Positions 27,001 to 36,168 of a DNA stretch of 64,000 bases are shown here, piece after piece; the first letter of the stretch is position 1; every line of letters begins with the position of its first letter. The notes under the pieces are model-generated. The model searched no databases, had not been told where the DNA came from, and saw only the letters and a list, made by a program, of their open reading frames with translations. The DNA lies in assembly GCA_964449215.1 (NCBI GenBank), contig CAYVAH010000001.1, positions 32,865-96,864 of the forward strand. Reading direction: 5' to 3'. The translations under genes were made by a program, and so were the position numbers. The stretch comes from Candidatus Undinarchaeota archaeon (lineage in GTDB: Archaea; SpSt-1190).

Positions 27001-28387
27001 AGGGAGATATGTCGTTCAGGCAACCGCAAGCTACTGGTATGGCAGGAAATTCGCTCTGAGCACTGACAGCTTTGATGTTGTGATAGAACCGGCGCCCATA
27101 ACAGCAGTCAGAAGAATCTTTTCATCCTGGGTCACATGGGTGATATTCTTCATGCTGGCACCCATTGTATACTTCGCATACAGGTGGCTCTATCCATACT
27201 GGGTTAAGTGGAGGGAGAAGCAGAAATCCAAGCAGAGATACACCATGCCCATCGACATGGAAGAGCTTCCGAAAGAGGGACCGAGCTCCGTCAAGGTCGG
27301 GAAGCTTGCCGGGACGGATACTGATGCCTGGTTCGACCTCGATGACCTGATGACTCACGCCATAGTGGCGGGAGCCACAGGGTCCGGGAAGACCGTTTCG
27401 GCGATGGTGATAGCCGAGGAAGCACTGAAGAAGGGTAAGGCACTGGTGGTGTTCGACCCGACAGCCCAGTGGAGCGGCTTCCTTGCACCGGACAAAGACA
27501 AGAAGATGCTCAAGTTCTTCCCCAAGTTCGGGATGAAAGAAGAGGATGCGCGCTCATTCAAGGGGCTGATATTCGAAATAACTGACCCGGCACAGATATC
27601 CACAATAGACTTCAAAGAGTGGATAAGGCCCGGGGAAATAACGGTGTTCACACTCAACAAGCTCACAACCAGTCAGTTCGATGACGCCGTCAGGAATATC
27701 ATAACCACATTCTTCAACCAGGTCTGGGAGGAAAGTGCCGAGCTGAAAGTCCTGATTGTCTTCGACGAAGTTCACCGCCTGCTGGAGAAATACGGAGGTA
27801 AGGGTGGGTATGTTGCACTTGAAAAGGCTGCCAGGGAGTTCCGTAAGTGGGGCCTTGGAATGATGATGATATCGCAGGTCCTGAGCGACTTCAAGGAAGC
27901 TGTGAAGGGTAACGTGCTCACAGAGGTCCAGATGCACTCGAAGGGTCCGGACATAGAGCGTGTCAGGTCAAAGTATGGTGACGAATTCGCCGAGAGGCTG
28001 CTCCGCCAGGAAGTTGGTGTGGGCTTCGTCCAGAACCCGAAGTATAACAGGGGTAAACCCTGGTTCATAAACTTCCGCCCGCTTATCCACAGCCCGCACA
28101 AGCTACTTGAGGAGGAGCTCGACACTTATAAGCGGCTGGGAGCTATAATATGGGCAATCAGGGACAAGATAAAGGCCATGAAGGAGAAGGGCAAGGACAC
28201 AACAGACCTCGAGATGGAGCTCAAGCTCGCGGAGGACAAGCTCAAGACAGGAGCCTTCAGGATGGCCGAGATATATCTGGAAGGGCTGAGAAAGAGAGTG
28301 GGTGTCAAGGGAGAAAAACAGAAAAAAGAAAAACCAAAAAAAGGGACGGAAAAGAAGAAGAAAGCCAAAGGAGGTAAGAAGAAATGA
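2..28387 (+). CDS. Giant cell-surface repeat glycoprotein (>=9,461 aa in window, 5' end lies upstream of the window) with C-terminal TM helix and cytoplasmic HerA/FtsK-like (DUF87) P-loop ATPase domain
   Basis: Uninterrupted ORF of 28.3 kb. The frame is open from nt 2 with no upstream stop, and the first Met at 47 lies inside a repeat unit (NAF...GGWGE context), so the gene is truncated by the window. ~21 tandem ~320-aa units with conserved GGWGE, DxDxD, PDC..Y..G.Q.W, CYKD and YNCTW motifs. NxS/T sequons every ~10-15 aa. Ends with GA-rich linker, one TM helix, Walker A GATGSGKT and Walker B VLIVFDEVH, and a K-rich tail. Confidence 0.85.
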   Translation, partial: TTLNITEIRYTWKYGMLFNESQNAFTRLKIYEYVPLMENATLYINGNSSRTTGGWGENFTHSLWVRDRFGRNVSVYFWHRIVGNEWVLVDNSTCASCGSWTQMNFSYNYQPDDINTWEFKFNATNDDGNNSLEGFVYVVERDDVILNLNKPENYEIVNRSGSYTFSTRIYDTDNQTYPDGTIGKIFVSIFDQKNFEDSPPPLSASDGWLNRTVTNDDWCSNEGWYYLGNHSWYTATTGDQYIKDNSSAVRNFTLMGTLSNTITELIGENVSKEYNSTVIIEGNVTTDCGVTVTSPTAKFNLTNGQYYWECTGTPVGNTYQCNFPTSSAPYGWYNITMLSNQSLYWDGFAQQVASFYLASVPDVNASVDNLEAPWGKSPFNFTSYVTDQDNDTVTIRFWLKKGSGSWDNEHTDTKSNTSNYLTYYERTFTCPGPNDVGTWYFKVNATDTSGYWNETSIIQFNVTKEPIWVMHYLGDGKTINRSDNEPDTQTRLAVRLYDYILNTNRTDLLDSNVLFWVNGTSFVSTLNSSGKNYYHDYKPTCSFPAGNLSWKANFSGESCYADNSSVNFNIVVMGTLNGSLIVPDGNTNYSQGELFNITLNLTDDCNQTIGDADVWFNLTNTRTGDWYRCPSSGYAQFNGTYYLCEVNTSEFKGGWFDIYVNATRQYHWSYIKNYQNIYFQITPVTLSSPQHSAPGDGGWGENHSFSVIVDHYADVQVCLLEDLGSGWEITECKSIPQPTNQQVFFYRTYDCGPASSFVSYKFNASEPGVPSTLSNTTSQNHFIQKDDVQIVYIKGNESTVNRSSGYTPFILLINDTDKGEPAPYVQSYDSPRVRFFVHNGTTYLEDGSNVTNSSGYVEYRFNPSCSYERGRATWYGSTTLDACYKAENSGTYNVTILADIAPNITYPNGETFYRLASLVINITVEYKDECGLHYLNASANYTLISRGFGTHYNCTSIDDYENGTQICHFDASFADQGYYDVNITAWGVEYHNNATYRKNKTFNLIQLWKPPVLQNETVTPEQDGGWGENFTFSVNVSDENAEDVNVSLWLSPDNSTWEWIETQTCYDCGSITQLDFNYRDYDCSDKGTQYFKFNATDSHNSTDRTGLNFTVYADDVQFLYEGLSTGNDTTVNRWAGQLLKIRVYDPDNETYLPDSENTRFWVTTDGSSWGAPMDSQTDSSYTNVTFTPDCNYQVGPQLWKVGTFGNNCYKDTNSTLHLTTTITGYMSLTIDQPSGEMFFEGDNVTTRANITDECGSPTIADATVAFNVSHDSFSAQCKPVQNEGTGWYNCTWNVTGSPGGWYSVGMNASRQYYNNASTIKTNAFFHEIAPVLSGEYVTPNESHWGTEYTFKVNVTDEDDTVRVKLYHRKWPSTLWSEVETQYCSDCVNKTLTFKRTYTQTEIGTWEWKFTSTDDDLWFNTSVHNLTVNKRNVIVEYYRGNESNVTRYGDNSTLLTLVVKDAVSNSPIGQGLDGGFWVTTNGTSWGPKIPESTEEGSYLNHSFKPDCTYQTGKQKWKGGVDESTYYYAGNSSEYNVSIYSIINGTINIPNGTRMVRGSVLEIYGDVGDECPGLTKGATVKYRIYKGIEFIPSPDPANDLNNGTYNASWDTTGAALGWYNITMNISKEYHFDYYRKKVNAFYLGSGTELRNPWVDNSQDGWGYNYTFKVEVRDVENDVTNVSLWYSNSSSGPWKLIDWQEIQTTVFENVTFHHSFECQDYFDGPTTYYKFLANDSNGFMDETSPQTIILEQDDLGFIIESGSGASIDREGINPFTFIVSINDTDAGKLVGEGLNGSFYFTYDSTEFDAGHNTTTNATGQILYDHDPNCTYTTGVQLWYVSMHDNACYKDTDMGTSTYSVIGQLKNNIDIPIFGSEFNVTNRILIRFNVTSDCEEEGGINDTSSVEITPKHNGTGTEYSCSENNEGDGYYNCSWDSTGKPEGNYTIILQSSKGSYNSNTTILMNWFWLENLPTNYTRQWVSPSTGGWGEKFQFNVTVNDTEGDTVTCKLYVNTSDGFVYKGTDTITGTAGIDTVGNCSVEVNDFSCGEQGTAEFKWEITDGTASNPLNTTVTSGPTIEQDDTVTEYLLGNGSYVNRSGGVTELILRINDTDRGIYVQSNGTVWVYDGSYFPWSNRSNSTGHLKIEFTPDCSYSAGLWNWVGGAHGDDCYKDSNVSGYLVVNITGWMNTNVINPDGEKFLRGTNITIWANVSDECNNSVVGVALNFTMRSDQTGSLYYCAPIYDEGTGYYNCTFNTSGMDTQWYDIISNSSRQYFNPASDTKDNAFWVETAPFLFAPLVDPGVGGWGETFSPKVNVTDYDYDDLTVTCEKRKNGTSTWYSCGAQGKKGINQQAVFSTTFSSADIGNWTIRFNVTEDDGDIWNDTIETNFTLEKDDTEIHYVDGNESSVNRVSGIAQLKLKAVDTDNSGQQISSQPAAIWVTTDGSTWGSAWTTSTLTDGTISVDFNPGCEYDVGKQKWRGGLRLNDYWKMSNSSEFNVTITSEAKPYIIKPKSKIALRGVNDIELKGNLTDLGDCGLVSGGSLSFFVPSENYYECSATDLGNGNYSCTIPAATTGSWAYGWHNLTFNGTREYFAVYNDTVVDSFYLADDPELINPHVSQSSVPWGTQLNFDVTLIDLDPDNKTVYFWIKRPGQDWKLENSTLYVGATDGDGELIQFPFMTNCSDVGTDYFKFNVTDTSGYNDTTSGTDQFTIQEHGALLIIEGGAGDDVRREGDNFANLSVRVRDQTTAEYVGAGVNGSFWIPNKTENETIFVQTNGSGYFNYQFNPNCTHDIGTLNWKVGVVNDMCYVDVNTSSTVNVYGQLKNNLLLPAYDDSYNVMDPVPVRFNVSTDCPGEGLVENATTTVEMVSPGSGAFACTPVHNESGGWYNCTWDSTGMEEGYWDIRLNSSNEYFDDNSSTYGNWFWLENVPVTAENSTVWVMNWTVGGWESANLSERHGWTREFNFTINVNDTEGDNVTCRLWIKHNSTGEWSIAGSDAIQGTPGIPTQGECNVSYQGFSCADIGTNDFLWELQDGETANYWNTSIESLKLRESETNITISAGDGMQIDRNYETLPMTVFVFDKDNNEWTSGVNVSFWVSHDNLNPELDTVKKTSAGNATYWFSPDCSYTVGIQNWMAGVSDGCFQDVNTSQSTATIFGTQTHYLLSPDGEASLRGTNVTIRGNITDDCGNGLDDAYVNFTMTSDFTGEMFYCAPISNEGTGYYNCTFNTSGMPARWYDVTLNASRDYHHDGNESWDNSFFVSTEPILTTPKVNTSTYDGDDGPVGGYSEFFNFSVVVTDEDGDTVTADLWLRFWNKTTNSWNSWTHEGLKICADCNNTVLSYTKYNFLCENMGTWQYKWNATDQSDNPPGEGIEYSDEVSPNNFTVEEDDILIEYYAGSGGWIWRNGTETATLSTKVWDVDDQRYLSTGEASGTIWITRDGTNWDDGNLLSVLAGFFNFTFQPDCTNNYSVGLQNWISGTTGNSCFKNANSSTHNITLKTYMTGQKDYPDGDAYERGKLVNFSYYVEDECSVGITELTRTLKLKSGTTTYTITSGITDHGNGTYTYSWDSEGKVLGWYNTSFEVSKEHYVPLNISDSDVFYLGEPPELQLESVDKILGGWGESWHFQVQCRDLEGDTDMVYLWLKKNSTAQWELRSQQSCTSTSFLILDFYDNYTCDYITPQADNTLWKFNASDQWNFTDETPEHTITIEKDDVSIEHVSGHLGNVDREGFGTVTLAVRAYDPDKLEYLPAGRSGTVYVTTDGSSWDSGNTNSTDSSGNVYFIFNPNCSYGTGIQKWRGGIEGDSCYKDSFSPDFTLTVYGQLKIALDQPPEGSTYQTTEIVDIRLNVSTDCQDEGLLNDSTVNITLNSPLDDSESCTPVNNEGDGYYNCSWDTTLKMPGYWDIFTNASREYYHHNYTQYNDWIELKNSPTQYSDMNVTPQVSGWGDLYNYSVNISDPDFDSVNCTLYISTNGGSSYQSIDTMILPGGNGTCYFEKEYSCDDIGEDNYFYFVLKDGYNLVQTDTVQGPNITKDTLSIQHETGDGGEVNRSVNSLTLRVNVTDLDKETIADDNIVVYFNITTDGTNYILEDQDNTTQGKASIDFGPDCTYDVGNQKWFAYTENTTCYYPANTSEFNLTIIGKLQNTVILPNGTEHYIGEDNVTIRVNVTDDCGDLIDAEYINFSSINQDSSQKFYCSPIVHEGTGYYNCTFNTSGMPTRWYDVEVHSNLTFHTLSTATRTSAFWIETRPTISLVSVTSEQGGSVGGWGETWTYKVNITDLDKDEVKAYLWERPAGGEFHLISPSGKSKPAGIATQIVTFTYAGYSCTDLTTSANREWFVNGTDDPSGEIKDPANTSVGSFTLERNDILISLDQGNNSMLNRSNVTNGERAKLRVHIQDTDRGSSINTQDTAKFWVTTDGSSYALDKQTTTVEPGGYVSDNFPTANKCNYDIGPQKWKVDFGETCYKPTMSDEWNITLFTNPLMVTLYEPDGGTYRQSEDDINFTGMVSDDCGGVAGATVEFKAKQGPETKSCTSINDKGNGNYSCTIPASSTSTWILGFYNTTINASKQYYNSSDVLQIDDGLKLVTDPSIENMQVSTSDSNNPFGWGELWTFEVQLYDSDQDTYNFEKVNVSLNYYNGTKWVVLNTTICSAPDCATTSFIDFYRYFTCDNIGTDIPFSFTAEDYWGYKTTYNFTQTITKDDAEITITLQPSSVDREGGMETLQARVFDKDHFVYPGTGVNTSFEVTYDGSNFDTPVYKATDSGSYASYDFNPNCSYGVGQQTWKVSVLTDRCYSSSFLGSPSAFITVLGQLKNNLMEPENGSSFNILVDSVFLRLNISTDCQGEGLQENATTTIELISPYGQVYNCTPVKNETGGYYNCTWDTTGKAEGWWDVRLNSSKQNYNKNSTTYCDRFWLENSPPTTQNETIRVFNYSSGSWYNSLTGAWSALYNYSINVTDFEGDEINCSLWISKDNGTSWEMVGYDFHSATYGTTNNVYCSVVYQGFDCGDIDTPENGSWIPEKAKKFKWTIMDSTPGNTYNTSYRWGPNVTEARARIEHMEGNNSLFIRNQDTKPLVVNVFDLDKNASATSNVSFWVTTDASSFRLELTNRSGPDGNATYWFAPNCDHLVGPSYYYQKWKAMINDGCYLEKNTTEFQYRLVGFLSPQITATRNETLDARTIFLRGTNVTVNISVDDECSVNVDNVEMNVSLVSQYGNTFTCSPIDELGSGEYSCEQNTTGMPARWYNITASFTYQPWYLDANASKTSPMSGYGYGAFFIETKPILSLEKVNTSNYDGDDGPVGGYSELFNYTVRVTDEDGDQVKVQLWYSKWLDPGWGDWEKLLTTSTSSGGSGVNFATCTDCNNTLVWLAKDNYLCSEMSKYRFKINATDEIGSPGGYDSESNTYGYETSDHNYTVEEDDVEVLHSKGNGSTVWRNGTASTTLETYVFDIDDQSNLSVGEARGRLWMTKDHSNYEFISTLDLQGSPGETGYFTYDFYPDCTYDVGKQKWIVETAPMPGTTCYKFVNSSEFETTPRGFLNMTINLPDGEYVERYEDNVTVDFYVYDDCNQGKSGTVTQIRFIHPQETYIIYDASITDHGNGTYTYVWDPDVGGAKIGQYNISIDSDYENYYDPYYENTTGFKEKAFWIQTRPSLWSPTVFSVDDGGWGETWTYQVYCRDEDYDNISLLLWKKKDSSSEWVLIDTKYCQYSGIDGTIISFQNNYFTCDDVTPEGEQTLWKINTTDPWNFNQSTGDQTQTIHKDDVSVFPYYPTKTEISREGPDNTTFKFSISDTDRGNAPVGANISSVAWVTSNIASESGDWTVVSLNKTVSDSSVTFLFNPNCSHNASYLLWKGGTFNDSCYKDANFSTSFYSSKSKIHVIGQLKNFINHPPNGSKFFVGELINFTFNVTDECYSNWGPIENATVNFSIILPGIQQDNYTQDDLTYVGNGLYNFSWNTYFHKGGYWDIEVFTNKTHYYANTTYFDNYLYLNNTPPLVENFSVTPAVEGWGRTFTYSADIYDSQKDNVTCKLFVTTDGGSNWEYKGEQVIYWGNGTCEINVTDFDCSDRGTDNYYRFQIDDGTEGNLRNTTDIYGPNITEDDVGVYYAYGNATNVSRKGTNYTSLSFLVTDLDRGNITVSDANGTFWITRNGVTYVTQPVVQTNSSGYVVYQFNPDCDPLYETMVQKWKAGVVDGCYVDTNLTDTYELTVMGDLTNNLDYIYKNSIPTAPPVNLTKGEEDLIADIHVTDDCGLDISSASVNISWISEYGNRYNCTVSDSGNGIYKCNMPTDAMKARWYDIEINSSKQPYYYDSLNTLQQNVLFLETRPIVTNLTCLNCPGGWGETFYFATTLTDEDLDNLTLKLFVRKPGTGFFYEMNSTNVTAPIINKTVVLSVPDTTFECPTHLGTGEFRFESQDDRKLTQSNTTNYTVERDDVRFEVSEGDGDFVWRNGTGALNLSLVVWDDDRNTTISGIQGTVWVTVNQSSWDSGKGIGTNGSGYLNYEFMNELPPGGQRCDYELGPQWWRGWVNDSCYKDTYSQNYSLTIRAELLPVIHIPDGEGYLLGDHILVAGTVSDDCPPPVENATVTYKLKRGSNTYTCSPTNSYNWTENLGWYNCTWDAGSRVKGWYDIEMQTSKAYYADNSTTKVQAFFLGEAPTLENPQVDHDYGGWGEEYVFQVIFSDPDYHSNNVSLWVSSDNVTWWLKDWKSAIGVDTTVQFFERFTCDDISSFPDGVKYWKVRAVDPFNYSDETQPKNITFIRDDVTVTPQATSNSSIRRMGTGEAYLEFRIYDTDLGVYPNESSTRVWITENFTNYSVVKSCNSTNGYCNVSWDPTCTAEAGVQNWVAGTMDKCYQQVNSTPTDLEVIGQLYLQPNQPEYHEIVNRNTTTEMNTSVTDECGNYVENATVIWYNEIWDQIASGYYANWSIAAGYELGSETINVNATKTHYDEGTNSTVVYVYGWSSITDISPESGSEFDAGNSIVVDCTVKDANIGSPIPGYSVDFFKNGTYQDTKVTQPNGVATWQWNTNTEPPSWFNISCRINDSSTMFYNTSVDTASTMIRIRRPLIFEYISTVPGTIYRNDSYNPHESNISVKVVEAQTGPSDGANVTFYNQTYSLIDYCITNSDGKCWILYNATNTITPDIYRIYLNATKDGTEPSVTNYTSVKVMGVLYLNITSPVNGSEHNKGETIDLTVDVWDENNNTITSADAYWWNETDMVGQGLSTTLNLKTQQTGWRNISVEVRKDCASYPGTECYDRAWNYSIIKINGLAGVKWVSPPSYANPPWYELTIYVPYNFTCNVYDEITGNGIYNYTTNVWYRFGTGPWIHAGTLQSNIDGDVSYTYEPNQKGDLTFKCNITDDPDKLYQAGASEASATFNVKDNVLPTIEDNYIYPTYGIEANLNHTTIYATISDNIGISATWVSIELPNGTYFTDSMVRYPDVVVDKKISDQNSTGFTHVENASEPGEMKHFNVTIHNNESFNVYFNLTINGELVFPNVTASAGSNTTVDAVENHSFSLPEPLDVEVQFFNGTGEPVNVSHVAFLDYRLSSYRYNYSYYPEIGGNYNVTIYAQDLPPESNIQSKFTGSFYVWGTTNVTAKNTPKFDVAVGITQINSYTFQLVANITNNGPANAWNVSMNITDDSWNYTEYWNGTHQQTYFYCGKIPANKSCVIPINVTIKEKTPPVVIIITSNVSWRNPDKSWNYTSDTTEVEVADTPVIEILEDELIAQAPHGMRSYLGNLTIASTGNSPVFDLEVFPVGGNLFYECPECNLILFPDSQGIMNAGTNYTMDVELDVPGGQTPGEYWTVIRANTSNAAYDDALLNVTIPWNSSWTRSPSGLGTILALLNTNDTIGNVTIKNIGNVRVYVTTYISGAGATLVTAEPRTMGISKLTSRNLTVSYSIPPDISQGLFPVQLTLRAKDEKGDDAGQETVTFTLNVTDLPPAIENIYVEPRDFEIYHDVVNISATITDNFEVSLAWLNITLPNGTFYRKYMNNTGSFYFSDYSTNITGLYILRICANDSRQLEGCTAPINLTANANTSLKFLPNRELVVDNARWLDPVNFTLNYTIKNARYSRAFNITANYSSPDGWNVYPLGVNISLLLKQEEYNDTLNIEVPAATLPGNYSFNVLLNWTNLDNTTGLNDTNFTIEVLENPLIESTPEEMKFTIINKEWKNKTLFVESAGNVIVNAVNVTCFGGVVCENMSVNITPSVLGSMPPGTLALVDIRVQVPEIFETGLYDGYLFVNGTESSDLTRLWVRVPLNISWEHNPTSIYRKLVQGESGEFGVVTIKNTGNVLTKLWLNVTGNITGYVSLNESYLEIPIEEERYVAINYSMPPTYDQLYLSGAFISENNSANITQQATSLGMMVHPLWVTIISPTQTSPTINVSNGTTINVNISATYGYSLIQSGITFNASLHRNGTYYDVNESYYYNDTDFLWHLNFTAPDLNRSTGYDLVVTGNYSLYDIAKTDREDKAVIYYDVIPPVVDLRPPAKASVNGTAMIRLNATDAGGVKDATATITFPDGNTVKSYEMHLDYIAGDTYAFSLAFNETWQEGIYGVSAKACDYSGNCGSDTGQFATFQYARFYGRTLDLEKSDETPINLTFDLYEEGTMNLLQTVYPNETGHYNETIDVRTYDIEAGFSNMSCKFYGVPIFTDVYNPVQMGRISPSLIGKGSLVGMELVENLSFSSAKIKFSYAGYEGIDTSNLAVYTCEDWVRFSGCANNSWVRSNSTVVEPGTEEAYVIVSDLSEAYALAEYVCGNDVCETPYGETTAVCPQDCPAGGAGAGGAAAGGGAGGGAAGGAAVAPAPTPTIPAEKFKPVPVEFKAPVIDITIYPGESKVFGVEVTNNMENSTTGRTYAEGPVWTLLEFQFENFTVENKSTRTVQINVVPTANVTPGVYTGDIVLEVAGIKHRIPASVAVEILEEPLLDVKVKTLTKRVAPGEPLKFEVTLINMGGTEEIEDIVVNYTVMTLEGEETTITIAGETVAVENLNRYVREVTIPEDVPEGRYVVQATASYWYGRKFALSTDSFDVVIEPAPITAVRRIFSSWVTWVIFFMLAPIVYFAYRWLYPYWVKWREKQKSKQRYTMPIDMEELPKEGPSSVKVGKLAGTDTDAWFDLDDLMTHAIVAGATGSGKTVSAMVIAEEALKKGKALVVFDPTAQWSGFLAPDKDKKMLKFFPKFGMKEEDARSFKGLIFEITDPAQISTIDFKEWIRPGEITVFTLNKLTTSQFDDAVRNIITTFFNQVWEESAELKVLIVFDEVHRLLEKYGGKGGYVALEKAAREFRKWGLGMMMISQVLSDFKEAVKGNVLTEVQMHSKGPDIERVRSKYGDEFAERLLRQEVGVGFVQNPKYNRGKPWFINFRPLIHSPHKLLEEELDTYKRLGAIIWAIRDKIKAMKEKGKDTTDLEMELKLAEDKLKTGAFRMAEIYLEGLRKRVGVKGEKQKKEKPKKGTEKKKKAKGGKKK
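47..20250 (+). repeat. Intragenic tandem array of ~21 divergent ~0.96-1.0 kb coding repeats (tri-domain Ig-like/beta-sandwich units) of the giant protein
   Basis: GGWGE-type motif recurs at nt ~161, ~1115 (degenerate), 2091, 3070, 4030, 4975, 5945, 6898, 7858, 8830, 9845, 10845, 11820, 12785, 13805, 14825, 15895, 16980, 18010, 19000, 19990. Each unit then contains DDV..Y..GN.S.VNR.G, F.PDC.Y..G.Q.W..G..CYKD.N and GQLKNN..D.C..EG.GYYNCTW..G..WYD motifs. Units are divergent, not identical at DNA level. Confidence 0.7.
26321..26420 (+). other. Gly/Ala-rich low-complexity linker of giant protein (AGGAGAGGAAAGGGAGGGAAGGAAVAPAPTPT) encoded by purine/GC-rich tract
   Basis: Read directly: gcaggaggggcaggagcagggggagcagcagcagggggtggagccggtgggggagcagcgggaggagcagcc. 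Confidence 0.8.
27115..27190 (+). other. Single predicted transmembrane helix of giant protein (IFSSWVTWVIFFMLAPIVYFAYRWL)
   Basis: ~24 hydrophobic residues followed by a positively charged stretch (YWVKWREKQKSKQR), consistent with extracellular N-side and cytoplasmic C-side. Confidence 0.65.
27215..28320 (+). other. HerA/FtsK-superfamily (DUF87-like) P-loop ATPase domain, C-terminal cytoplasmic portion of giant protein, followed by Lys-rich tail
   Basis: Walker A HAIVAGATGSGKT (nt ~27368-27393) and Walker B KVLIVFDEVHRLL (nt ~27749-27775). The downstream EFRKWGLGMMMISQVLSDF...VLTEVQMH matches the arginine-finger/sensor region typical of HerA/VirB4/DUF87 ATPases. Tail is KQKKEKPKKGTEKKKKAKGGKKK. 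Confidence 0.7.
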
Positions 28388-29085
28388 AATGTCTGGTGGC
28401 GATGATGCTCCTGGCCGGAACATTCGCCCTCAGCTTCAGTTATGATGGCGAAGTTTTCGTGACCCCCGGTGAGGAAAGAGTGGTGAAGATATACCTGCAG
28501 AGCGAAAATGAAAGTGGAGTTTACCCTGTCACCTGCTCCTCAAGTATTTCTGTGAAATGTCCGAACTACGTGAGGATAAACCCGGGATCGGAAACCTTCG
28601 TTGCCCTGGAGCTCACAGCGGGAATCGGGCGGCATCTGGTGAATGTCTCGATAGGAGGGAGACCAATACGGTTTGTCGTTGAGTCTTCGAACCACACAGA
28701 TGTGTTTTACAATATGCTCCAGAGATACAACAACAGTTTTTTCAGGCTCGAAGCAAGGTATGGAAAGAGTGAACTCCTTGACCTGGGGAAGCTCCTGGTT
28801 TCGGAGGGGTTCTCCCACTACAAAAAAGGGGAATATCCTGCAGTCAAAGGAATTCTGGAAAATCTCGAGACGCTGCTCGGTGAATATTATGCCTCCATTG
28901 GAACCGTGGAGGAACAGCCAGCCAGACTTGAGCTGTCTTTCATTCCCCTCCTCCTAGTTGGAGGAATGCTCGGGGCTTACACCATTGCAACAAGGAAGCC
29001 GAAGAGAAACTCCGGGGCAGGGGAACTGAGCAAACTTATGGAAAAGGAGTTTGGAGGTGGAGTTGTTGGCAAAAAAGAAGACTAA
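28384..29085 (+). CDS. Small secreted/membrane-anchored protein (N-terminal signal peptide, C-terminal TM anchor), translationally coupled to the giant gene
   Basis: ATGA start/stop overlap with the giant ORF. N-terminus MKCLVAMMLLAGTFALS is signal-peptide-like. C-terminal LSFIPLLLVGGMLGAYTIATRKPKR is a TM plus stop-transfer. No recognisable family. Confidence 0.6.
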   Translation: MKCLVAMMLLAGTFALSFSYDGEVFVTPGEERVVKIYLQSENESGVYPVTCSSSISVKCPNYVRINPGSETFVALELTAGIGRHLVNVSIGGRPIRFVVESSNHTDVFYNMLQRYNNSFFRLEARYGKSELLDLGKLLVSEGFSHYKKGEYPAVKGILENLETLLGEYYASIGTVEEQPARLELSFIPLLLVGGMLGAYTIATRKPKRNSGAGELSKLMEKEFGGGVVGKKED

Positions 29086-30229
29086 GCCGAAGAAAGTCAA
29101 AAAGGAGGAAGAAAAGCCCGCGGAAGAGGCCCCAGAAGAAGAAGGCGGGGAACCGGCAGCAGAGGAAGGAGAAAGAACAATAGGAGATATTGTTGAGGAG
29201 GAGGGGCTTGTTTCCGAACCTGAAAGGGAGTCAATGCTCAAGCAGCAGGGGACACCTGAGCTCTCTGAAGTTCTGATGCGCATTGACAGAATTGACGGGA
29301 AGCTGGAGCTCTTCAAAGGGATGCTCGATTCCTTCAACGAAAGACTCATAGAACTCAATGAACGCCTCGGGGACACCCGCAGGATGGTCTTCGACAGGGA
29401 AAAATGGGCCTCAAAGCTCGAAACGGAGTTCGAGAAAGTGGCAGGCATTGTGAAGGAACTTGACCCGGAGAAAATCGTAATGAGGTTCGAGAAGTTCAAG
29501 ACAAGCATTGAAAAACAGAATGCAACCCTGGAAAAGCTCAACGACCTCCTGAAGAACCTATCGGAGCGGATGAAGATTGCGGAGGGGAAACTCGAGAACG
29601 TTAAGAGCCTCGAAAACGTGATGAAGGCCGGAAAGACCGTTGAGGAGAAATTGAAGAAGATTCAGGAAGCGAAGACATATACGGACAAAATATCCGCGAA
29701 GATAGAGGCGATGTTCCTCGAAACGAATGAAAGGGTCGCCATGATGAAGGAAAACCTTGATAAGATTGAAAAGCATGAGTCGATGCTGGGCGACCTGCTG
29801 AAGGAAATTGAATCACTGAAGTTCAAGATAGATGAAGAGCTCGTGAAAAAGAGGGAGGTTGAGGAACTTATTGAGTCCGCAAAAGACGTAATCATAGAAG
29901 AAATCGTTGGGATAAACCCAGTTGCTTTTGACAACCTTCGAAGGAGGGTCGCGATATTGGAGAACAAGGGAAAAAGCACCAGAGAGCTCGAAGAGGAGCT
30001 GAAGAAATACCAGACACTTATGGATCAGGTTGAAAGGGATTTCCAGATGGGGCGGATAAAGGACGAAGCCAGGAACGAGCTGAAGGCCAGCACGGAGAAA
30101 AAGATAGAAGAAATCCGGCTGGTCCTTGAGAGCAGAAAGGGTCCAAAAAAGGTTGAGGGGAAGAAAGCAAAGGGAAAGGAAACCAAGTTGAAGGAAAAAC
30201 TTCTGAGCATGGGAAAGAAATCTACTTGA
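29051..30229 (+). CDS. K/E-rich cytoplasmic coiled-coil protein (start uncertain: TTG/GTG at 29051-29066; first ATG at 29234)
   Basis: Long ORF with heptad-like K/E/L-rich sequence throughout and no TM. Overlaps the previous gene across an A-run (ggcaaaaaagaag). SD-like GGAGGTGG at 29053-29060. Confidence 0.55.
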   Translation: MEVELLAKKKTKPKKVKKEEEKPAEEAPEEEGGEPAAEEGERTIGDIVEEEGLVSEPERESMLKQQGTPELSEVLMRIDRIDGKLELFKGMLDSFNERLIELNERLGDTRRMVFDREKWASKLETEFEKVAGIVKELDPEKIVMRFEKFKTSIEKQNATLEKLNDLLKNLSERMKIAEGKLENVKSLENVMKAGKTVEEKLKKIQEAKTYTDKISAKIEAMFLETNERVAMMKENLDKIEKHESMLGDLLKEIESLKFKIDEELVKKREVEELIESAKDVIIEEIVGINPVAFDNLRRRVAILENKGKSTRELEEELKKYQTLMDQVERDFQMGRIKDEARNELKASTEKKIEEIRLVLESRKGPKKVEGKKAKGKETKLKEKLLSMGKKST

Positions 30230-33200
30230 AAACCCTCTTCAGTTCCTCGAAGGTCTCGCGGGATATCAGCCCCTCTTCATATTGGCTCTTCAGTGTTTGA
30301 AGAACGTCAGATCCCCCTTCTGCTTCCCTTTTCTTCTTCACTATTTCCTCGAGCTTCTTCATCGCCCTCCTCTGCTCCCTCCCTTTCAGTATCTTGAACT
30401 TGTTTATGGCTATCACAATCAGGAGAATCAGAGCAAATATGGAAACGGCAATCACATACCAGTTCGGTGGAACCTCCGGGAGCGTGACTGTCGGCAGATA
30501 CCTCGGTTTTGAAATCTCCAGCCGGTATTTTATCTCCTCGATGGTGTTCTCCACATCAGATATCGTCTTGATTGCATCAACAGTCTGGTCCTTCTCGAGG
30601 TAGGTTTCAGCCACATCGAGCATTTCCCTGGATTTCCTGAGGAGGGAAAGAATCTTGGTAACATCACCCCCCCTCGCAGCAACCTTACCCGCCTGGTCCT
30701 CCAGATCCATAAGCTCCTCCCGGAGGGAAGCAATCCTCGCCCGGAGAGCCTCCTCCTGTGTCTTAAACACTATAACCTTGTAGAACTCCGAAACCTCCAC
30801 TTCACGGGAAATTATACGCATCTTGGTCACGTAGGTTCGGGCCGTGGCGTCCTCAGGGATCGTGAACTTCACGACAAGGTATCCACTTGACCCGGGAGAG
30901 AGGGATGCCACCTCCCTGACAACCTCGAACCAGTCCTTGTCTATGTCCTCAAAGAAAACTGTTATGTCGGAAAGGCCAACATCCCCTGTGTTCTTCACCT
31001 CGATGGTGAGATAACCCACCGAACCGCGGTTTATTATCATCTCATCCGGGAAGACGTTGGTTATTGTGAGCTCCATCACAGCAGCCTCAACCGGTGTTAT
31101 AATCTCAGGGGGGACCTCCTCCGGCGCAGCAGCTTCCACCACCCTGAAACCCCTCGAAACCTCAAGCGGGGGGTACACTGTCGAGTAGTTCAGAAGGACG
31201 TGGAGCGAGTAGCCCCCCGCTGACTGGTTGGAGTATATGGAAAGATTTGCAGTTAACGTGCGGTTGCCCCTGGCAGGAACGAATGTCGGCCTGTCATGGA
31301 CATAGGCATAAGTTCGATTCTGTGAATCCTCAATCCAGTATGAGAGAAGAACATCCTGGTCAACATCCCCGTAGTTCTCGAGCAGTATGGTGAAATTCAG
31401 GTCCTCACCCTGTGGCACCTCTGGGTCTATGCTGATTATATCAACGTCATAGGGTCCGCCAAAACTGACGCGGAAAGCCTTGAGCTTCCTCACCTGCCTC
31501 CCCCCTTGCTCAACTATAAGCTCCGCCAGATAGTATCCGGTGGTCGTTGGGAGGCTGTGCTTCGTCTGGTAGAGCCTGCTATTGTTCGTGACGTTGAAAA
31601 GCGAAAGCGAGCTGTTCGTGAAATAAAGATTCTCGGCCGAGTCATACACGTTCAGCGTGACTTCGTCCGGTTCCACCATAGGACCATCAGTATAGACGAG
31701 AGCGTAAAAGTGTGCCTGTATCGGCTGGCTTGAGTACCACACATATCCTACATCAAACTCAACATTATATTCCTCCCTGACGGAGAAGGAATACGTGGTG
31801 CTGTGATTAACTGTCTTGTTCGCCACCGGGTCCCGGTGCGAGGCATTCACAGTTATGGTGTAGTTGCCCAAGGGAGCATCATCGGGAATTGAAAATGTTG
31901 GTATCGGCAGCACCGTTCCATCGGACTGGAGCTCGTCGTGATATCGCAGGTATCCGAGCGAGTCGTTGAGCTTTAGAGAAACATTTGCAGGTATGGGAAT
32001 CCCGGACTCATCAGTGGTGTTTATGTATATGGATGCCGTTTCTCCCGTGTAGTATGTCCGGAAACCCGTTCCCACACTCGTGTGGAGTATTGGATAAACA
32101 TACAAGGTCAGGTTCTGACGGGAATAAAGCCCAAGGTTGTCTCTCGTCTCAACCTGCAAGGTGTAGTAACCGAACTCGTTGCTGTTCCCCCAGGTCCCGG
32201 GGTATGTGAGCTCGTAGTAGTAAGTCTCATTTGATTGATTCACGAGGTTCATGTCAGATGCCTGCACCGAGCCCCGGGGAAGAAACACAACGAGTCTGGT
32301 GAAGCTCAACCCCTGCCCGGATTTATCAGTGATATTCGCATAAACCGTTATGTCTTCAAGCTCCTGCGTAATATTCTTTGACAGTGTGGCATTTATCTCG
32401 GCAAGCTCTCTTGGTATCATACTCACGTTCAAATATCTCCAGGAGGGCTGTGCGACGCCAGCACTCACATTGTATGTGGCATTATAATAGTCCCTCGCGA
32501 CTCCGGTGAGATTCCAGAGTATGACAAAGAGGTGCACGCCCTGCGCTGGAACGGTGAAGTTGGTCTCATTGGTGTATGTATAGTTGGCGCTTTCCGGGGA
32601 AACGGTGAAGTTCAGTTCCACGTTACCCGTGTTGTTGACCATAACGTCGCACATCTTCCCCTCATCGAAAGCTACCTCGGTTGTGCAGTTCTCCGGGTGG
32701 AGCTCCCAGGTCCGGGAAACGGGAACTGTAATATTCAGGTACACAAAATCGTAACCATCATCGGAGCTTGTGTAATTGGCAGTTCCGGTATAATTGCCGG
32801 GGGAATAGCCGGGGGAGACATTCACATTCGCAGTCACATCAATCACAGAGCCAACAGGAATGAAGTCTATCTCGGGATAAAACGTTATGTTGAAATCATC
32901 CAGCCCAAGCACCGTTACACTCACCCCATTCACCTGGTCATTACCGGTGTTCCTGACGGTGAAGCCACCGATATCCGTGCTCTGACCGTGTGGCGCCGAA
33001 CCGGCCACATACGCTTCGTCTATCTGAAACTCCTTGTTCGAAAGAACTTCCACAGTGATGTTCGTGGTGTTGTATGTCACCCCTATTCCGGGATTCGCCC
33101 AAGAAACATTGACAACAACAGTGTAGTTCCCGGGCGTGCTCCGCTTCACAGCAAGCTCAAATGTCCTGAAACAGAACCCACCCACCGGCACGTCACCGCA

Positions 33201-35903
33201 GTTATACCTGTTGCCAGAAACGTTCGTGAGCCAGTAGGCCTCCGGGAGCTCCAGGGTGATGTTTGTGTCGAGGGCCGGAGAAGACCCTATATTCGTCGTG
33301 TTCACAGAAACCGTGAAATTCTGAAATTTATACCACCTCATCCTGTCAGAGGTGAGGGCGGAGGGCGTGGCGTTCACGCTCATAAAAGTCTCTATTATGC
33401 TAACCTGGACAGGTATGGAATCCCAGACGCCATTCTCCGAGGACGCATTTAGAGTACCATCAAAGGTACCACGCTCATGGTCACTTGGCATATACACCCA
33501 GACCTCCACAGAAGCATTTTCACCCTGGAAAATCAAGGAAACATTTGAAGGGGTGAAATTGAAAGTCATGGTGGGTATTCCTGTGACGTTGAACGTCACA
33601 TTCTGCAACTCGAAGTTTCCTTCGGATAAGACGGTTATATTCCCCATATAGTTCCACTCGCCTGGAGCGGCAGTTATGGAAATGTTCTCCTCGGCAATCC
33701 TGAGTGAGGGATTCGGGTCCACGGAAATGTTGAACGTGGTGTTGTAGCTGTCGGTGGTGTTGTCGGAGTTCAACCAGTCCACTGTGGCATTCACAAGATA
33801 AAACCCTGGAGTTTCATTTTCGGGGACCCACACATCAAAAAACCTGATGGAAGATTGAAAGAGGTCTATCGTACCAAGCTGTTCGAAGCTCGTGTTCACC
33901 CACCAATTCCCGGGGAGATTCAGGGTAATGTTGGTCGCGTAGGCGGTGCCGTTCCCGAGGTTGGTCACATTCGCCACCATCGTGAAGTTCTGTCCTTCAG
34001 AAAGGGTCACGTTATCTATGGACTCCCTGCCGCCTGTGAAATTCAGACCGACAGTCACATCCGTCACATACGTCACTGAGGTAAAGGTGTCCTGCGCCGT
34101 CCCTGTGTTGCCAAGTCTCGTAGCATTACAGACAAGTGTGAACACACCATAGTATGAGGGGGACACGAATTCTATCAGGTATGTGCCGTTCCCATAGTCA
34201 GTTACATTTGGGTTCGCATCTGTGGAGTCATACACACAGCTTATATTCGCCCCGGGGATGTATGTGTCATTACGGTAGTTGGTAACCTCCATGGTCGCAT
34301 TTATGGTGCGATTAACGAACCCGTAGTCATTTGAAATATTGAGTGACGCAGTGTAGGTATCAAACACAAAAAAGCTGGCGGTGGTCGTGTTCAGGAGCAC
34401 GTTCTTCTGGTCCCAGGCATAAGCCGTGATATTCCACTGACCTGTCGAGTTCGACTCGTTCAGGATGAAATAATTTGTGTAGAGGTCGTCCCCTGCCTGC
34501 GAATCCCCATGACTCCCGTCGTCATAAAGGGTCAGCGACAGGTCGCCCCCCTCAGACACAATGGTCGCATTCACGAGGGTTATCAGCCCGGAATCCACGG
34601 TGGCATTAACAAAAACTGTTACATTCTCCCCGCGGTTATAGCTTGAGTGTTCCGTTGAAGCGTTCAGGAACACCTCCCATTTTTCCGAAAGAGTCTTTGA
34701 CGTTTCCTCCCTGAAAAGCAACCTGTTCCTGAGGTTCCTGACTTGGGCGTCAGTCGGAGATCCCTTGATCGCGGAAGGGCTGTTGAAATGAAGTGCTGTC
34801 ACCTCATATAGGGTCTCATCTGGCTGAACCGTCACATTGGAAAGTTCAATACCCCCCCTCCCCCAGCTGTTGTTCCTGTTGACGGAAGCATAGGGACCCG
34901 AATCCTCAACATTTATGATACCAACGTGGAAGTTCGCGAACTCCGCGGCAAACCAGAACCACGAGGCAGGCTCGGAGGCATTCCCGATTATTATGCTGTT
35001 CGTCCCTGCCCTTTTAACATCAAAGAGCAAAGCACCAGCAGGAGTGGAATTGCGGGTTATGTTATAGTCCGCCGTGTTCTTGTAAATTTGCTCCACCTTT
35101 ATCCACTGGCTCTGATTGTAGAATATGTAACGCTTCACAATTTCACCTTCTGTCTGGTTTGTGGAGTTCCATACAACTTCCTTCCCTCTTTGCTCCACCA
35201 CGAGCCTTGCAGGACCCTGATAGAGAACTGTCATGTTGTTGCGAAGGTCGAACGTAAAGTTGTGTGTGTCATTGGAATACTGCATATACTCAATGGGGTT
35301 CTCCCCCTCAGACGGAGGAGACCAGAACTCATTCTCAGCATAGTCCTTTATTCTATAGATGCCTGAAACGTTGGCGCCCCGGGAGGTGTCTATCCAGTAT
35401 TCAAGACCTTTTGTGGTTCCGGAATCCTCAATGGTCACGTTGACCTGCAGCTCCTCGCCATCCCAGCTGTACGGGATGACAGTGTAGTTGATGGCGGGCT
35501 TGCTGTCGGTGTCATAGTAGAGACAAAAGACCCTCAGCTCGTTGGCCGCGAGGGTACCGTTCATTATGAACGCCAGCGTTCCGTGAAAATTCATCGAGGC
35601 GTTGAACCCCTGACCCTCATCGAACTGGCTCGGCAGCTCGAACATGGCACTCCCGCTGGAGGGATCCTGCTCTATGAGGCGGAGTGAAGTGGCGTTGATA
35701 GTCCCGCTTCCCCCAGAAGCATTCAGCTCAGCAGTAAGGTTCAGCGGGAACTCTATTGGCCAGTCTTCGCGGGAATACTTGGAAGCATTTACTTCGATAC
35801 ACACACGGTAATCCCAGCTGGAATCCCACCACTCCAGCTTCGCAAAAGCCGGGAGAACCAAAAGAAGCAGCAGCAGGGCTACCCGAAACCTCACGGAATT
35901 CAA
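30222..35903 (-). CDS. Large surface (S-layer-like) glycoprotein, 1,893 aa, with N-terminal signal peptide, C-terminal coiled-coil stalk, TM anchor and short cytoplasmic tail (start codon TTG at 35903 or GTG at 35894)
   Basis: N-terminus (M)NSVRFRVALLLLLLVLPAFA is signal-peptide-like. Very high NxS/T density. Coiled-coil segment at aa ~1720-1810. TM is WYVIAVSIFALILLIVIAINKF. TATA-like GGCTTAAATTAAAAGCC at 35909-35925. Convergent with the giant-gene operon, with 3' ends overlapping by 8 nt. Confidence 0.75.
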   Translation of the reverse strand: MNSVRFRVALLLLLLVLPAFAKLEWWDSSWDYRVCIEVNASKYSREDWPIEFPLNLTAELNASGGSGTINATSLRLIEQDPSSGSAMFELPSQFDEGQGFNASMNFHGTLAFIMNGTLAANELRVFCLYYDTDSKPAINYTVIPYSWDGEELQVNVTIEDSGTTKGLEYWIDTSRGANVSGIYRIKDYAENEFWSPPSEGENPIEYMQYSNDTHNFTFDLRNNMTVLYQGPARLVVEQRGKEVVWNSTNQTEGEIVKRYIFYNQSQWIKVEQIYKNTADYNITRNSTPAGALLFDVKRAGTNSIIIGNASEPASWFWFAAEFANFHVGIINVEDSGPYASVNRNNSWGRGGIELSNVTVQPDETLYEVTALHFNSPSAIKGSPTDAQVRNLRNRLLFREETSKTLSEKWEVFLNASTEHSSYNRGENVTVFVNATVDSGLITLVNATIVSEGGDLSLTLYDDGSHGDSQAGDDLYTNYFILNESNSTGQWNITAYAWDQKNVLLNTTTASFFVFDTYTASLNISNDYGFVNRTINATMEVTNYRNDTYIPGANISCVYDSTDANPNVTDYGNGTYLIEFVSPSYYGVFTLVCNATRLGNTGTAQDTFTSVTYVTDVTVGLNFTGGRESIDNVTLSEGQNFTMVANVTNLGNGTAYATNITLNLPGNWWVNTSFEQLGTIDLFQSSIRFFDVWVPENETPGFYLVNATVDWLNSDNTTDSYNTTFNISVDPNPSLRIAEENISITAAPGEWNYMGNITVLSEGNFELQNVTFNVTGIPTMTFNFTPSNVSLIFQGENASVEVWVYMPSDHERGTFDGTLNASSENGVWDSIPVQVSIIETFMSVNATPSALTSDRMRWYKFQNFTVSVNTTNIGSSPALDTNITLELPEAYWLTNVSGNRYNCGDVPVGGFCFRTFELAVKRSTPGNYTVVVNVSWANPGIGVTYNTTNITVEVLSNKEFQIDEAYVAGSAPHGQSTDIGGFTVRNTGNDQVNGVSVTVLGLDDFNITFYPEIDFIPVGSVIDVTANVNVSPGYSPGNYTGTANYTSSDDGYDFVYLNITVPVSRTWELHPENCTTEVAFDEGKMCDVMVNNTGNVELNFTVSPESANYTYTNETNFTVPAQGVHLFVILWNLTGVARDYYNATYNVSAGVAQPSWRYLNVSMIPRELAEINATLSKNITQELEDITVYANITDKSGQGLSFTRLVVFLPRGSVQASDMNLVNQSNETYYYELTYPGTWGNSNEFGYYTLQVETRDNLGLYSRQNLTLYVYPILHTSVGTGFRTYYTGETASIYINTTDESGIPIPANVSLKLNDSLGYLRYHDELQSDGTVLPIPTFSIPDDAPLGNYTITVNASHRDPVANKTVNHSTTYSFSVREEYNVEFDVGYVWYSSQPIQAHFYALVYTDGPMVEPDEVTLNVYDSAENLYFTNSSLSLFNVTNNSRLYQTKHSLPTTTGYYLAELIVEQGGRQVRKLKAFRVSFGGPYDVDIISIDPEVPQGEDLNFTILLENYGDVDQDVLLSYWIEDSQNRTYAYVHDRPTFVPARGNRTLTANLSIYSNQSAGGYSLHVLLNYSTVYPPLEVSRGFRVVEAAAPEEVPPEIITPVEAAVMELTITNVFPDEMIINRGSVGYLTIEVKNTGDVGLSDITVFFEDIDKDWFEVVREVASLSPGSSGYLVVKFTIPEDATARTYVTKMRIISREVEVSEFYKVIVFKTQEEALRARIASLREELMDLEDQAGKVAARGGDVTKILSLLRKSREMLDVAETYLEKDQTVDAIKTISDVENTIEEIKYRLEISKPRYLPTVTLPEVPPNWYVIAVSIFALILLIVIAINKFKILKGREQRRAMKKLEEIVKKKREAEGGSDVLQTLKSQYEEGLISRETFEELKRVFK

Positions 35904-35979
35904 AAACGGCTTAAATTAAAAGCCTTGCACCGAAAAAAACACGCTCCGCCAGAATTTTAGCTACTCTTGCATTTAAACA

Positions 35980-36168
35980 TCAGTTCAGCCTTGTAAAGCT
36001 CTCCTCCTCTTCCTGTCCGGGAAAAGGATGCTCCGGAAGCTCCTCCTCATAGAGGTCGCTTACCAGTATGTTCAACACAGCGTCGAGCTTTCTCTCGAGC
36101 CCCTTAATGCGGGACTCAAGTTCCTCAAGCTGCTTTTCCAGGGTCATATGGACAAGAGCAAAAGCCAA
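35980..36168 (-). CDS. Small coiled-coil hypothetical protein (62 aa)
   Basis: ORF with LEELESRIKGLERKLDAVLNIL heptads. No family recognised and it could be non-coding. Confidence 0.25.
   Translation of the reverse strand: MAFALVHMTLEKQLEELESRIKGLERKLDAVLNILVSDLYEEELPEHPFPGQEEEESFTRLN

Follow-up and report, generated by a model that had tools for sequence, protein, structure and literature searches.

A conserved membrane-anchored glycoprotein family and its candidate partnership with SPEARE-type giant proteins of DPANN archaea

Does the long gene that faces a giant-gene operon tail to tail in a Candidatus Undinarchaeota archaeon encode a surface-layer (S-layer) protein, or does its product belong with the machinery encoded opposite? 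The gene lies on contig CAYVAH010000001.1 of GenBank assembly GCA_964449215.1, of which we analysed the 64,000-nucleotide stretch from position 32,865 to 96,864 of the forward strand (hereafter the window, to which all coordinates refer). Its open reading frame (ORF) occupies 30222..35903 on the minus strand, giving 1,893 residues when counted from TTG 35903, and this stretch contains no other long ORF. An original prediction, made from the sequence of the window, saw in the product an S-layer-like glycoprotein with a coiled-coil stalk and a C-terminal membrane anchor. Judged by its predicted features, the protein (hereafter the target) is an archaeal membrane-anchored surface glycoprotein with immunoglobulin (Ig)-like repeats, from an unannotated family. 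We hold with moderate confidence that it is a type-I membrane glycoprotein and, in DPANN archaea, a conserved partner of the SPEARE-type giant adhesin/ATPase; a place in a cell-contact apparatus seems to us likelier than the role of a classical S-layer protein.

The question bears on a wider problem. DPANN archaea live attached to hosts, and the proteins of the attachment and exchange structures involved are largely unknown; the composition of the DPANN attachment organelle has been stated to be unknown (PMC11420986). SPEARE-type giant proteins are the leading attachment candidates and have so far been treated as stand-alone molecules.

Linkage to a SPEARE-type ATPase module

The plus strand of the window opens within a giant gene (2..28387, >9,461 residues) cut by the left window edge, its frame being open from nucleotide 2 with no in-frame stop before ATG 47. 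The product combines a glycosylated, Ig-rich ectodomain, a transmembrane helix (aa 9024-9045, 27116-27181) and a cytoplasmic part (27182-28387) in which a HerA/VirB4-like P-loop ATPase is followed by a Lys-rich coiled-coil tail. Its Pfam matches are DUF87/HerA, HerA_C, ResIII, T4SS-DNA_transf, MG2 and NEW3, its Walker A motif reads GATGSGKT, and N-X-S/T glycosylation sequons are uniformly dense along the ectodomain (480 vs 147 expected). The same architecture of ectodomain, transmembrane helix and ATPase was described for the SPEARE proteins of Nanohaloarchaeota (PMC6642349), which have been reinterpreted as VirB4/TraG-like ATPase-anchored adhesins (PMC10266531). With its giant ectodomain, transmembrane helix and HerA/VirB4-like ATPase, the window's giant ORF fits the definition of a SPEARE-type protein. 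Homologues of its ATPase module, at 50-53% identity, are found in metagenome-assembled genomes (MAGs) of Nanohaloarchaeota, and its relative at locus L002 reaches 13,237 residues.

The last gene of the operon (29051..30229, +) codes for a highly charged cytoplasmic coiled-coil protein of 392 residues without transmembrane helix, hereafter called w392. Members of its family contain 38-47% charged residues and likewise lack a transmembrane helix. As read from the sequence, the convergent stop regions of w392 (TGA, 30227-30229) and of the target gene (TAG, 30224-30222) overlap by 8 nt (30222..30229), which confirms the overlap of 3' ends proposed in the original prediction.

To characterize this genetic association, we used tblastn to search the proteins of the operon (for the giant protein, approximately its last 1,000 residues) against the window and 84 fetched loci containing target homologues. 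Of the distinct loci, 31 have 9 kb or more of flanking sequence on each side, and in 27 of these 31 both the ATPase module and a w392-family gene are found no farther than 10 kb from the target homologue. The arrangement is not uniform: the two genes lie directly upstream of the target homologue and on the same strand in 32 loci, and they are convergent with it in nine, among them those of the window's clade. At locus L001, for instance, a 974-aa ATPase-module gene is followed by a 539-aa coiled-coil gene and, after a 27-nt gap, by the target homologue. Because the linkage outlasts both the change of gene order and a divergence down to about 30% protein identity, we regard the target, the ATPase and w392 as a probable functional module. 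The functional tie to the convergent operon proposed at the outset thus finds strong support in synteny, over 27 of 31 loci and two gene orders. In addition, the target and the giant protein have NEW3-type repeats in common (26-28% identity), located at aa 620-1121 of the former and in a membrane-proximal region, aa 7596-8302, of the latter.

In 37 loci (e.g., L001 16819-17589, L003 21758-22531 and L005 16368-17174), a gene for a ParA/MinD-type ATPase also lies no more than 10 kb from the target homologue. It is intercalated between the coiled-coil gene and the target homologue in six loci. Of the five loci labelled Micrarchaeota, four have it directly downstream of the target homologue, and three of these four have no ATPase module. 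No copy is present within the 64-kb window.

A second link comes from the cytoplasmic tail of the target, which comprises 57 residues (aa 1837-1893, 30225..30395, -), ends with RVFK and harbours a SHOCT-like motif at aa 1866-1892 (30228-30308). Two short helices carry this motif (...YEEGLISRETFEELK...), whose consensus EG[IL]IS..Y.ELK is found across the target family, with an invariant Gly at position 1878. The Pfam SHOCT profile (PF09851) aligns with aa 1868-1890 at 18.2 bits, below its cut-off of 27 (E = 0.0021), and matches one of the 12 members scanned. As the SHOCT matches are sub-threshold in both the target and the w392 families, we did not retain SHOCT as a firm domain assignment and refer to a SHOCT-like motif.

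We built a hidden Markov model (HMM) of the tail (target aa 1862-1893, 50 sequences) and ran it against 3,838 ORF pieces of at least 80 residues from all loci. At E<0.01, the matches outside the target family were w392-family proteins and a single 112-aa ORF piece, unidentified, from the L018 edge (E = 0.003). The best w392-family match was in L051 (1.6e-8), followed by L044 and L054 (1.7e-4 each), L049 (4.4e-4), and then L027, L060, L067, L035, L032 and L029. The model did not match the other, equally charged coiled-coil ORFs of the loci. The matched w392-family sites contain Y..G.[IL]S...YEE[LI], and that of L049 is also a sub-threshold match to SHOCT. This shared motif, short as it is, suggests that the tail of the target may contact its w392-family partner.

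Family constraint and predicted architecture

The protein database yielded 53 homologues of the target, which share 26-73% identity with it and are nearly all full length (1,878-2,092 residues). Their annotations read hypothetical, "NEW3 domain-containing" or "uncharacterized membrane protein". A 50-member alignment is collinear from the signal peptide to the tail, with gap fractions mostly below 5%. A scan of one genome per GTDB species, using a 12-sequence query alignment, confirmed relatives in at least 131 stretches/species genomes, mostly of Aenigmatarchaeota, the others being labelled Micr-, Woese-, Pace-, Undin- or Nanohaloarchaeota. The target displays the features of this family, namely full-length collinearity, the WW signature described below, NEW3 and MG2 domains, a C-terminal transmembrane helix and the tail motif in the form EGIIS..Y.ELK. 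In a limited literature search, we found no published description of the family or of its linkage to SPEARE-type genes: the literature on COG1470, on archaeal NEW3 and on DPANN with VirB4 gave no account of it, and no such gene cluster is described in a study of archaeal dark-matter islands (PMC4158269).

The target is identical to its L002 orthologue at 72.6% of 1,893 aligned residues, without any indel, compared with 78.8% for the cysteinyl-tRNA synthetase, 72.1% for the aldehyde dehydrogenase, 69.5% for NIF3 and 64.0% for HhH-GPD of the same pair of loci. With L006, the target shows 56.3% identity, and the same four comparison proteins 55-68%. By these sequence comparisons, the target diverges at the rates of housekeeping enzymes among its closest relatives. 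Such even constraint over 1.9 thousand residues appears unusual for an exposed adhesin or S-layer protein.

Regarding topology, the hydropathy profile shows just two hydrophobic segments. The first, peaking over aa 1-27, belongs to a Sec-type signal peptide (VRFRVALLLLLLVLPAFA, 35841..35894, -) with two Arg residues in its n-region (RFR), a hydrophobic core and an AFA|K site, so that cleavage is predicted before KLEWW. In the homologues, the WW motif likewise follows an AxA-like site by 2-6 residues. In one sub-clade (P0012, P0015, P0018, P0024, P0026-P0029, P0031, P0040, P0041, P0044 and P0045), an ITG[ML]F[IV]GFG sequence is conserved between the N-terminal hydrophobic segment and the WWN signature, which suggests that the signal or processing site of these proteins differs from the AxA-type site of the target. 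The second segment is a single transmembrane helix (NWYVIAVSIFALILLIVIAINKF, aa 1814-1836, 30396..30464, -; hydropathy maximum 2.96) followed by a positively charged stretch. The AlphaFold2 model has a helix over aa 1814-1861, and a transmembrane helix is present at the matching position of nearly all full-length homologues. The sequence thus describes a type-I membrane protein whose extracellular part comprises approximately 1,790 residues and whose cytoplasmic part comprises 57.

The target contains 102 N-X-S/T sequons, vs 26 expected from its composition, and none past aa 1572; the cytosolic proteins of the window have 0-2 each. Across 49 homologues, 44 of the 102 are kept in position in 50% or more of the sequences, and 25 in 80% or more. 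We infer from this pattern and from the signal peptide that the target is exported and N-glycosylated. The signal peptide, the sequon- and beta-rich ectodomain, the transmembrane helix and the short tail, rich in Lys, Glu and Arg, had all been anticipated in the original prediction.

We modelled the target with AlphaFold2 in two halves, using 46-sequence alignments of the target and its homologues, with mean predicted local distance difference test (pLDDT) values of 89.4 (aa 1-955) and 87.0 (aa 956-1893). The chain is all-beta from about aa 30 to 1715. Segmentation by secondary structure divides it into approximately 14 beta-sandwich domains, the boundaries of which are approximate by construction: a distal head made of two sub-domains, D1 and D2, and a rod of about 12 Ig-like domains.

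D1 (aa 22-148, 35460..35840, -; pLDDT >90) is a beta-sandwich opening with WWDSSWDYR, the target's version of the WWNxSWHYR signature found at the start of the mature chain in the family. D2 (aa 149-400, 34704..35459, -) is predicted to adopt a galactose-mutarotase-like beta-supersandwich fold. In the 50-member alignment, the head is the best-conserved part of the family. Within the head, R33, E51, E78, Q93, R124, Y129, D131, Y206, E242, Y259, Y262 and R284 are invariant, and D95, E205 and K257 are conserved at 90% or more. No Pfam model matches aa 22-400, even at E = 10. DUF2341, considered as a possible identity of the WWNxSWxYR sub-domain, is not claimed, as it gave no match at that threshold. 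According to an exhaustive HMMER search with a head profile, the whole head is essentially confined to proteins of about 1.9-2.1 thousand residues or to their fragments. The same search matched D1 alone, of about 125 residues, in several hundred other secreted multidomain proteins. Among these are proteins of 4-5.7 thousand residues with five or six matched stretches, three to six such stretches being counted in giants of 4.4-5.7 thousand residues (P0078, P0079, P0116, P0137 and P0139), as well as bacterial secreted proteins with PKD, fn3, CBM_4_9 or type IX secretion system (T9SS) sorting domains.

The fold of D2 resembles the supersandwich domains of GH38, GH65, GH94, PL4, PL26, GH174, aldose 1-epimerases and the periplasmic P1 domain of YidC, at 6-14% identity and with no Pfam family recognised. 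Its matches are mostly non-catalytic accessory domains. The supersandwich is typical of carbohydrate-binding and carbohydrate-processing modules, and the target might alternatively be a surface-anchored carbohydrate-active enzyme. D2 would then be catalytic, as in PL4 and PL26 lyases, GH174 fucanases or mutarotases, and the rod would space it from the membrane to cut glycans of the host or the matrix. The many invariant charged and aromatic residues of the head would suit an active site, and five of the 12 members scanned match the GH123 N-terminal domain in Pfam. We nevertheless consider an enzyme improbable, since neither Pfam nor NCBIfam places a catalytic family in aa 22-400, even at E = 10, since the structural matches are distant and mostly to accessory domains, and since catalysis would leave the synteny with the ATPase and coiled-coil genes unexplained.

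The rod (aa 401-1714, 30762..34703, -) includes two recognisable domains. NEW3/NPCBM_assoc (PF10633) is found at aa 635-710 (33774-34001) with 60.1 bits vs a cut-off of 24.4 (E = 2.4e-16), and in 12 of 12 members scanned. MG2 lies at aa 1284-1363 (31815-32054); it is sub-threshold in the target and reaches E = 4e-22 in the family, where it was detected in 11 of the 12 members. MG domains are also those of macroglobulins, and Foldseek aligns the C-terminal half of the model with alpha2-macroglobulins, complement C3/C4/C5, TEP1, CD109 and ECAM (E of about 1e-17 to 1e-22), as would be expected of a membrane-anchored alpha2-macroglobulin/TEP-like protease trap that guards the envelope like bacterial ECAM/YfhM. 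The target has only eight cysteines and no CxEQ thioester motif, its model includes no helical thioester domain, bait region or CUB domain, and the template-modelling scores (TM-scores) of about 0.13 limit the likeness to tandem beta-sandwiches. With both the thioester motif and the thioester domain absent, we consider this possibility effectively refuted and its probability very small. More generally, Foldseek searches with the whole half-models returned only generic tandem Ig/MG proteins at such TM-scores and were uninformative on the overall architecture.

Between the rod and the membrane, where a heptad coiled-coil stalk of about 90 residues had been proposed, the model shows a helical segment (aa 1715-1798, 30510..30761, -) made of three helices of 28, 22 and 25 residues (aa 1716-1743, 1749-1770 and 1774-1798; pLDDT of about 86-94), separated by loops of five and three residues. 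The first loop contains Gly1745, which is shared by all 12 sequences of the family alignment. Taken as a whole, the 84 residues do not exceed shuffled sequences in heptad occupancy (p = 0.30); taken individually, the helices are weakly amphipathic in heptads (p = 0.03-0.07), with no register in common. These observations do not support the stalk and suggest a compact three-helix element, presumably packed as a bundle, although the helices might also pack in oligomers. A disordered linker (aa 1799-1813) precedes the transmembrane helix, which extends into the cytoplasm in the model.

S-layer comparisons and a possible cell-contact role

Could the target still be the S-layer protein of this DPANN lineage, or a membrane-anchored component of its S-layer, with lattice-forming N-terminal domains, an Ig pillar and a transmembrane anchor? 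Its layout is that of such a protein, from the signal peptide, the conserved sequon-rich ectodomain and the tandem Ig-like rod to the C-terminal transmembrane helix and the short conserved tail. No fetched locus contains a second full-length copy, and the family is widespread in Aenigmatarchaeota. The gene has its own strong TATA element, conserved in this clade, and we found no other candidate S-layer gene within the 64-kb window. A further parallel is a Pyrobaculum S-layer protein whose overall layout matches that of the target (bioRxiv 10.64898/2026.08.21.746120).

Despite this resemblance, comparisons of sequence, profile and fold linked the target to no S-layer family and to no S-layer protein of solved structure. 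Pfam and NCBIfam yielded no S-layer family, and S_layer_N and S_layer_C (PF05123/PF05124), which characterize S-layer proteins of the Methanococcales and Thermococcales type, gave no match at E<=1 in the target or in the 12 members scanned. PDB searches returned nothing significant: the lowest E-value was 0.037 when the single sequence was used and 0.088 when the profile was. PF05123 is present in the S-layer protein of Micrarchaeum harzensis (SLP_Mh), an experimentally supported DPANN case, to which NEQ300 of N. equitans has a similar predicted domain architecture (10.1101/2021.04.28.441871). At L001, 9 kb from the target homologue, a PF05124 match (25188-25913, -) appeared to signal a separate S-layer protein, and we discarded it since the translation is a 308-aa cytoplasmic protein of the helix-turn-helix type. 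S-layer genes have been reported in most Aenigmarchaeota MAGs (PMC8407114).

Other features fit an S-layer function poorly. The target evolves slowly, at housekeeping-like rates, and is most conserved in its distal head, whereas the greatest divergence is reported for exposed S-layer surfaces. The target gene follows the ATPase and coiled-coil genes immediately and in the same orientation in most genomes, and the tail motif of the protein recurs in a cytoplasmic partner. Finally, its codon bias is ordinary, with an effective number of codons (Nc) of 49.6 vs 43.6 for thermosome and 51-55 for aminoacyl-tRNA synthetases, which is a weak proxy for expression and hence a weak test. Taken together, these data make an S-layer protein unlikely in our view, and the S-layer identity originally proposed is not borne out. 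Of the SlaB/tetrabrachion-like architecture, the coarse layout stands, i.e., signal peptide, glycosylated beta ectodomain, juxtamembrane helices, transmembrane helix and tail, and the stalk is not supported.

If the target were an S-layer protein after all, it would be the DPANN counterpart of the colossal S-layer proteins with Ig pillars. By analogy, it resembles the Pyrobaculum protein more than SlaB or tetrabrachion. This protein, PySLP (292 kDa; UniProt A0A7L4PAH2), comprises non-canonical N-terminal domains and a pillar, with 19 Ig-like domains, a C-terminal transmembrane helix and a conserved short tail (10.64898/2026.08.21.746120). Compared by description, the two share a single-chain organization, a signal peptide, N-terminal domains with an Ig pillar, a transmembrane helix, a short tail and sequons. 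They differ next to the membrane, where PySLP has a beta-hairpin and a basic tail ending in Lys and the target has three helices and a 57-aa SHOCT-like tail, as well as in the target's most-conserved distal head and the linkage of its gene to an ATPase operon. PySLP has homologues in Thermoproteota, and no protein with that label is among the 53 target homologues.

SlaB pairs with SlaA and is the S-layer stalk protein of Sulfolobales. Its 475 residues include three beta-sandwich domains and one unbroken helix of 132 residues, which assembles into a trimeric coiled coil (PMC10903991). Like the target, it begins with a Sec signal peptide and is anchored by a C-terminal transmembrane helix, two traits that are not family-specific, and in between it has beta-sandwich domains followed by a helical segment. 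The target differs by its approximately 14 beta domains and by its roughly 75 helical residues, which are in three pieces with a conserved Gly break; it shows no sequence or fold match to SlaB and has no SlaA-like neighbour. Tetrabrachion of Staphylothermus marinus is built on a four-stranded parallel coiled-coil stalk of about 70 nm (10.64898/2026.08.21.746120). Like the target, it is a large glycosylated surface protein with a C-terminal membrane anchor, whereas the target lacks any long coiled coil, those three segments being its only helical residues outside the membrane.

The target also resembles SPEARE-type proteins themselves, being secreted, sequon-rich, Ig-like and anchored by one transmembrane helix, with NEW3 and MG2 in common with the window's giant protein. 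In contrast with them, it lacks an ATPase or P-loop and counts only 1.9 thousand residues, and it differs further by a unique, conserved head of the supersandwich type, by its three helices next to the membrane and by the SHOCT-like tail. SPEARE-type giants vary from about 4 to more than 13 thousand residues, whereas length and domain order are fixed in the target family. We also compared the locus with the arCOG01314 secretion system, with its MoxR ATPase and Ig-like "S-layer" proteins (PMC5898192), and rejected this parallel because the components differ and no HerA-like ATPase is involved.

We thus return to the target as a probable partner of the SPEARE-type giant protein, for which the following arrangement can be envisaged. 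The target would rise beside the giant protein's base, to a height of at most a few tens of nanometres above the membrane, and its tail would contact the coiled-coil protein inside the cell and, through it, the ATPase side of the complex. Its distal head might bind glycans, either on the envelope of a partner or host or on the giant protein itself, and thereby help to position or stabilise the cell-contact apparatus. The target would then be a scaffold or co-receptor subunit, neither the ATPase nor the adhesin itself. HerA/FtsK/VirB4 ATPases act as hexamers, and it is therefore conceivable that several copies of the target surround the ATPase-anchored giant chains.

Several observations weigh against this proposal. 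The window's own w392 copy is degenerate at the motif (FQMGRIKDEARNELK) and gave no match to the tail HMM. In four Micrarchaeota-labelled loci, there is no ATPase module within 10 kb of the target homologue; a ParA/MinD gene is immediately downstream in three of them, and L055 has none within its flanks. The cultured nanohaloarchaea with SPEARE genes are not among the target-family matches, so the ATPase module may work without the target. Contact of the target with the giant or the coiled-coil protein is deduced from synteny and a short shared motif. The supersandwich also serves as a purely structural or a catalytic domain, and glycan binding by the head is putative. Lastly, the architecture of the target is equally compatible with an S-layer-type protein.

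More speculatively, the target, the giant ATPase-anchored protein and the coiled-coil protein, often with ParA/MinD, might together form an undescribed DPANN-wide envelope machine. It would consist of a glycosylated Ig collar or pillar around the base of a hexameric conduit, with SHOCT-like coupling in the cytoplasm and lectin-like heads that engage the host envelope. We regard this extended model as doubtful. If true, such a machine would represent the molecular basis of DPANN-host attachment or exchange structures. The finding that a slowly evolving glycoprotein of 1.9 thousand residues and a coiled-coil protein travel with the ATPase module across DPANN defines a three- or four-gene module in place of isolated giants.

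Gene start, promoter and neighbouring genes

A non-ATG start and a TATA-like element had been proposed for the target gene, and both are present. Of the two start codons originally considered, TTG 35903 and GTG 35894, our data favour the latter (35892..35894, -), which gives a product of 1,890 residues. P0001, a gene call of this length on a Joint Genome Institute (JGI) metagenome contig, is 100% identical to the target and begins at GTG 35894. Homologues P0003-P0006 have their Met1 (MRFK...) at the aligned position, where the L002 and L006 genes also start. The TATA-like promoter core CTTTTAAT (35915..35922, -) lies within the palindrome GGCTTTTAATTTAAGCC (35909-35925). The octamer does not vary among five diverged loci, although identity in the rest of their flanks is about 45%, and its centre is approximately 24 nt upstream of the GTG/ATG start. 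Such a spacing fits an archaeal TATA box with a leaderless mRNA. TTG 35903 is only about 12-16 nt from the element and is unlikely as a start, being too near to it. GTG 35894 is most likely the start of the target, and its distance from the TATA element implies that the mRNA would be leaderless or nearly so. The original prediction had extended the feature to 35925; the ORF reaches no further than 35903, and 35909-35925 represents non-coding promoter sequence.

Directly upstream of this promoter, a 55-aa ORF (MTLEKQLEELESRIKGLERKLDAVL..., 35980-36147, -) has a coiled-coil-like sequence, and at L004 a 55-aa gene is likewise called upstream of the target homologue. Within the convergent operon, between the giant gene and the w392 gene, lies a gene for a small type-I membrane protein of 233 residues, w233 (28384..29085, +). 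From its translation, w233 consists of a signal peptide, a beta domain, a helical segment, a transmembrane helix and a short tail, and thus represents a miniature of the C-terminal layout of the target. It is conserved in the window's own clade only, i.e., in seven loci including the window.

Elsewhere in the window, two adjacent genes (52649-56684, -) code for proteins of 988 and 360 residues, each with an N-terminal hydrophobic segment and a C-terminal transmembrane helix and without Pfam match. The larger protein contains 10 sequons vs about 3 expected, and the pair may form another envelope module. A charged 526-aa protein (57440-59020, +), also without Pfam match, has a correlation of relative synonymous codon usage (RSCU) with thermosome of 0.74 and an Nc of 45.8. 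Among the genes checked, its codon usage is the nearest to that of thermosome after the giant gene.

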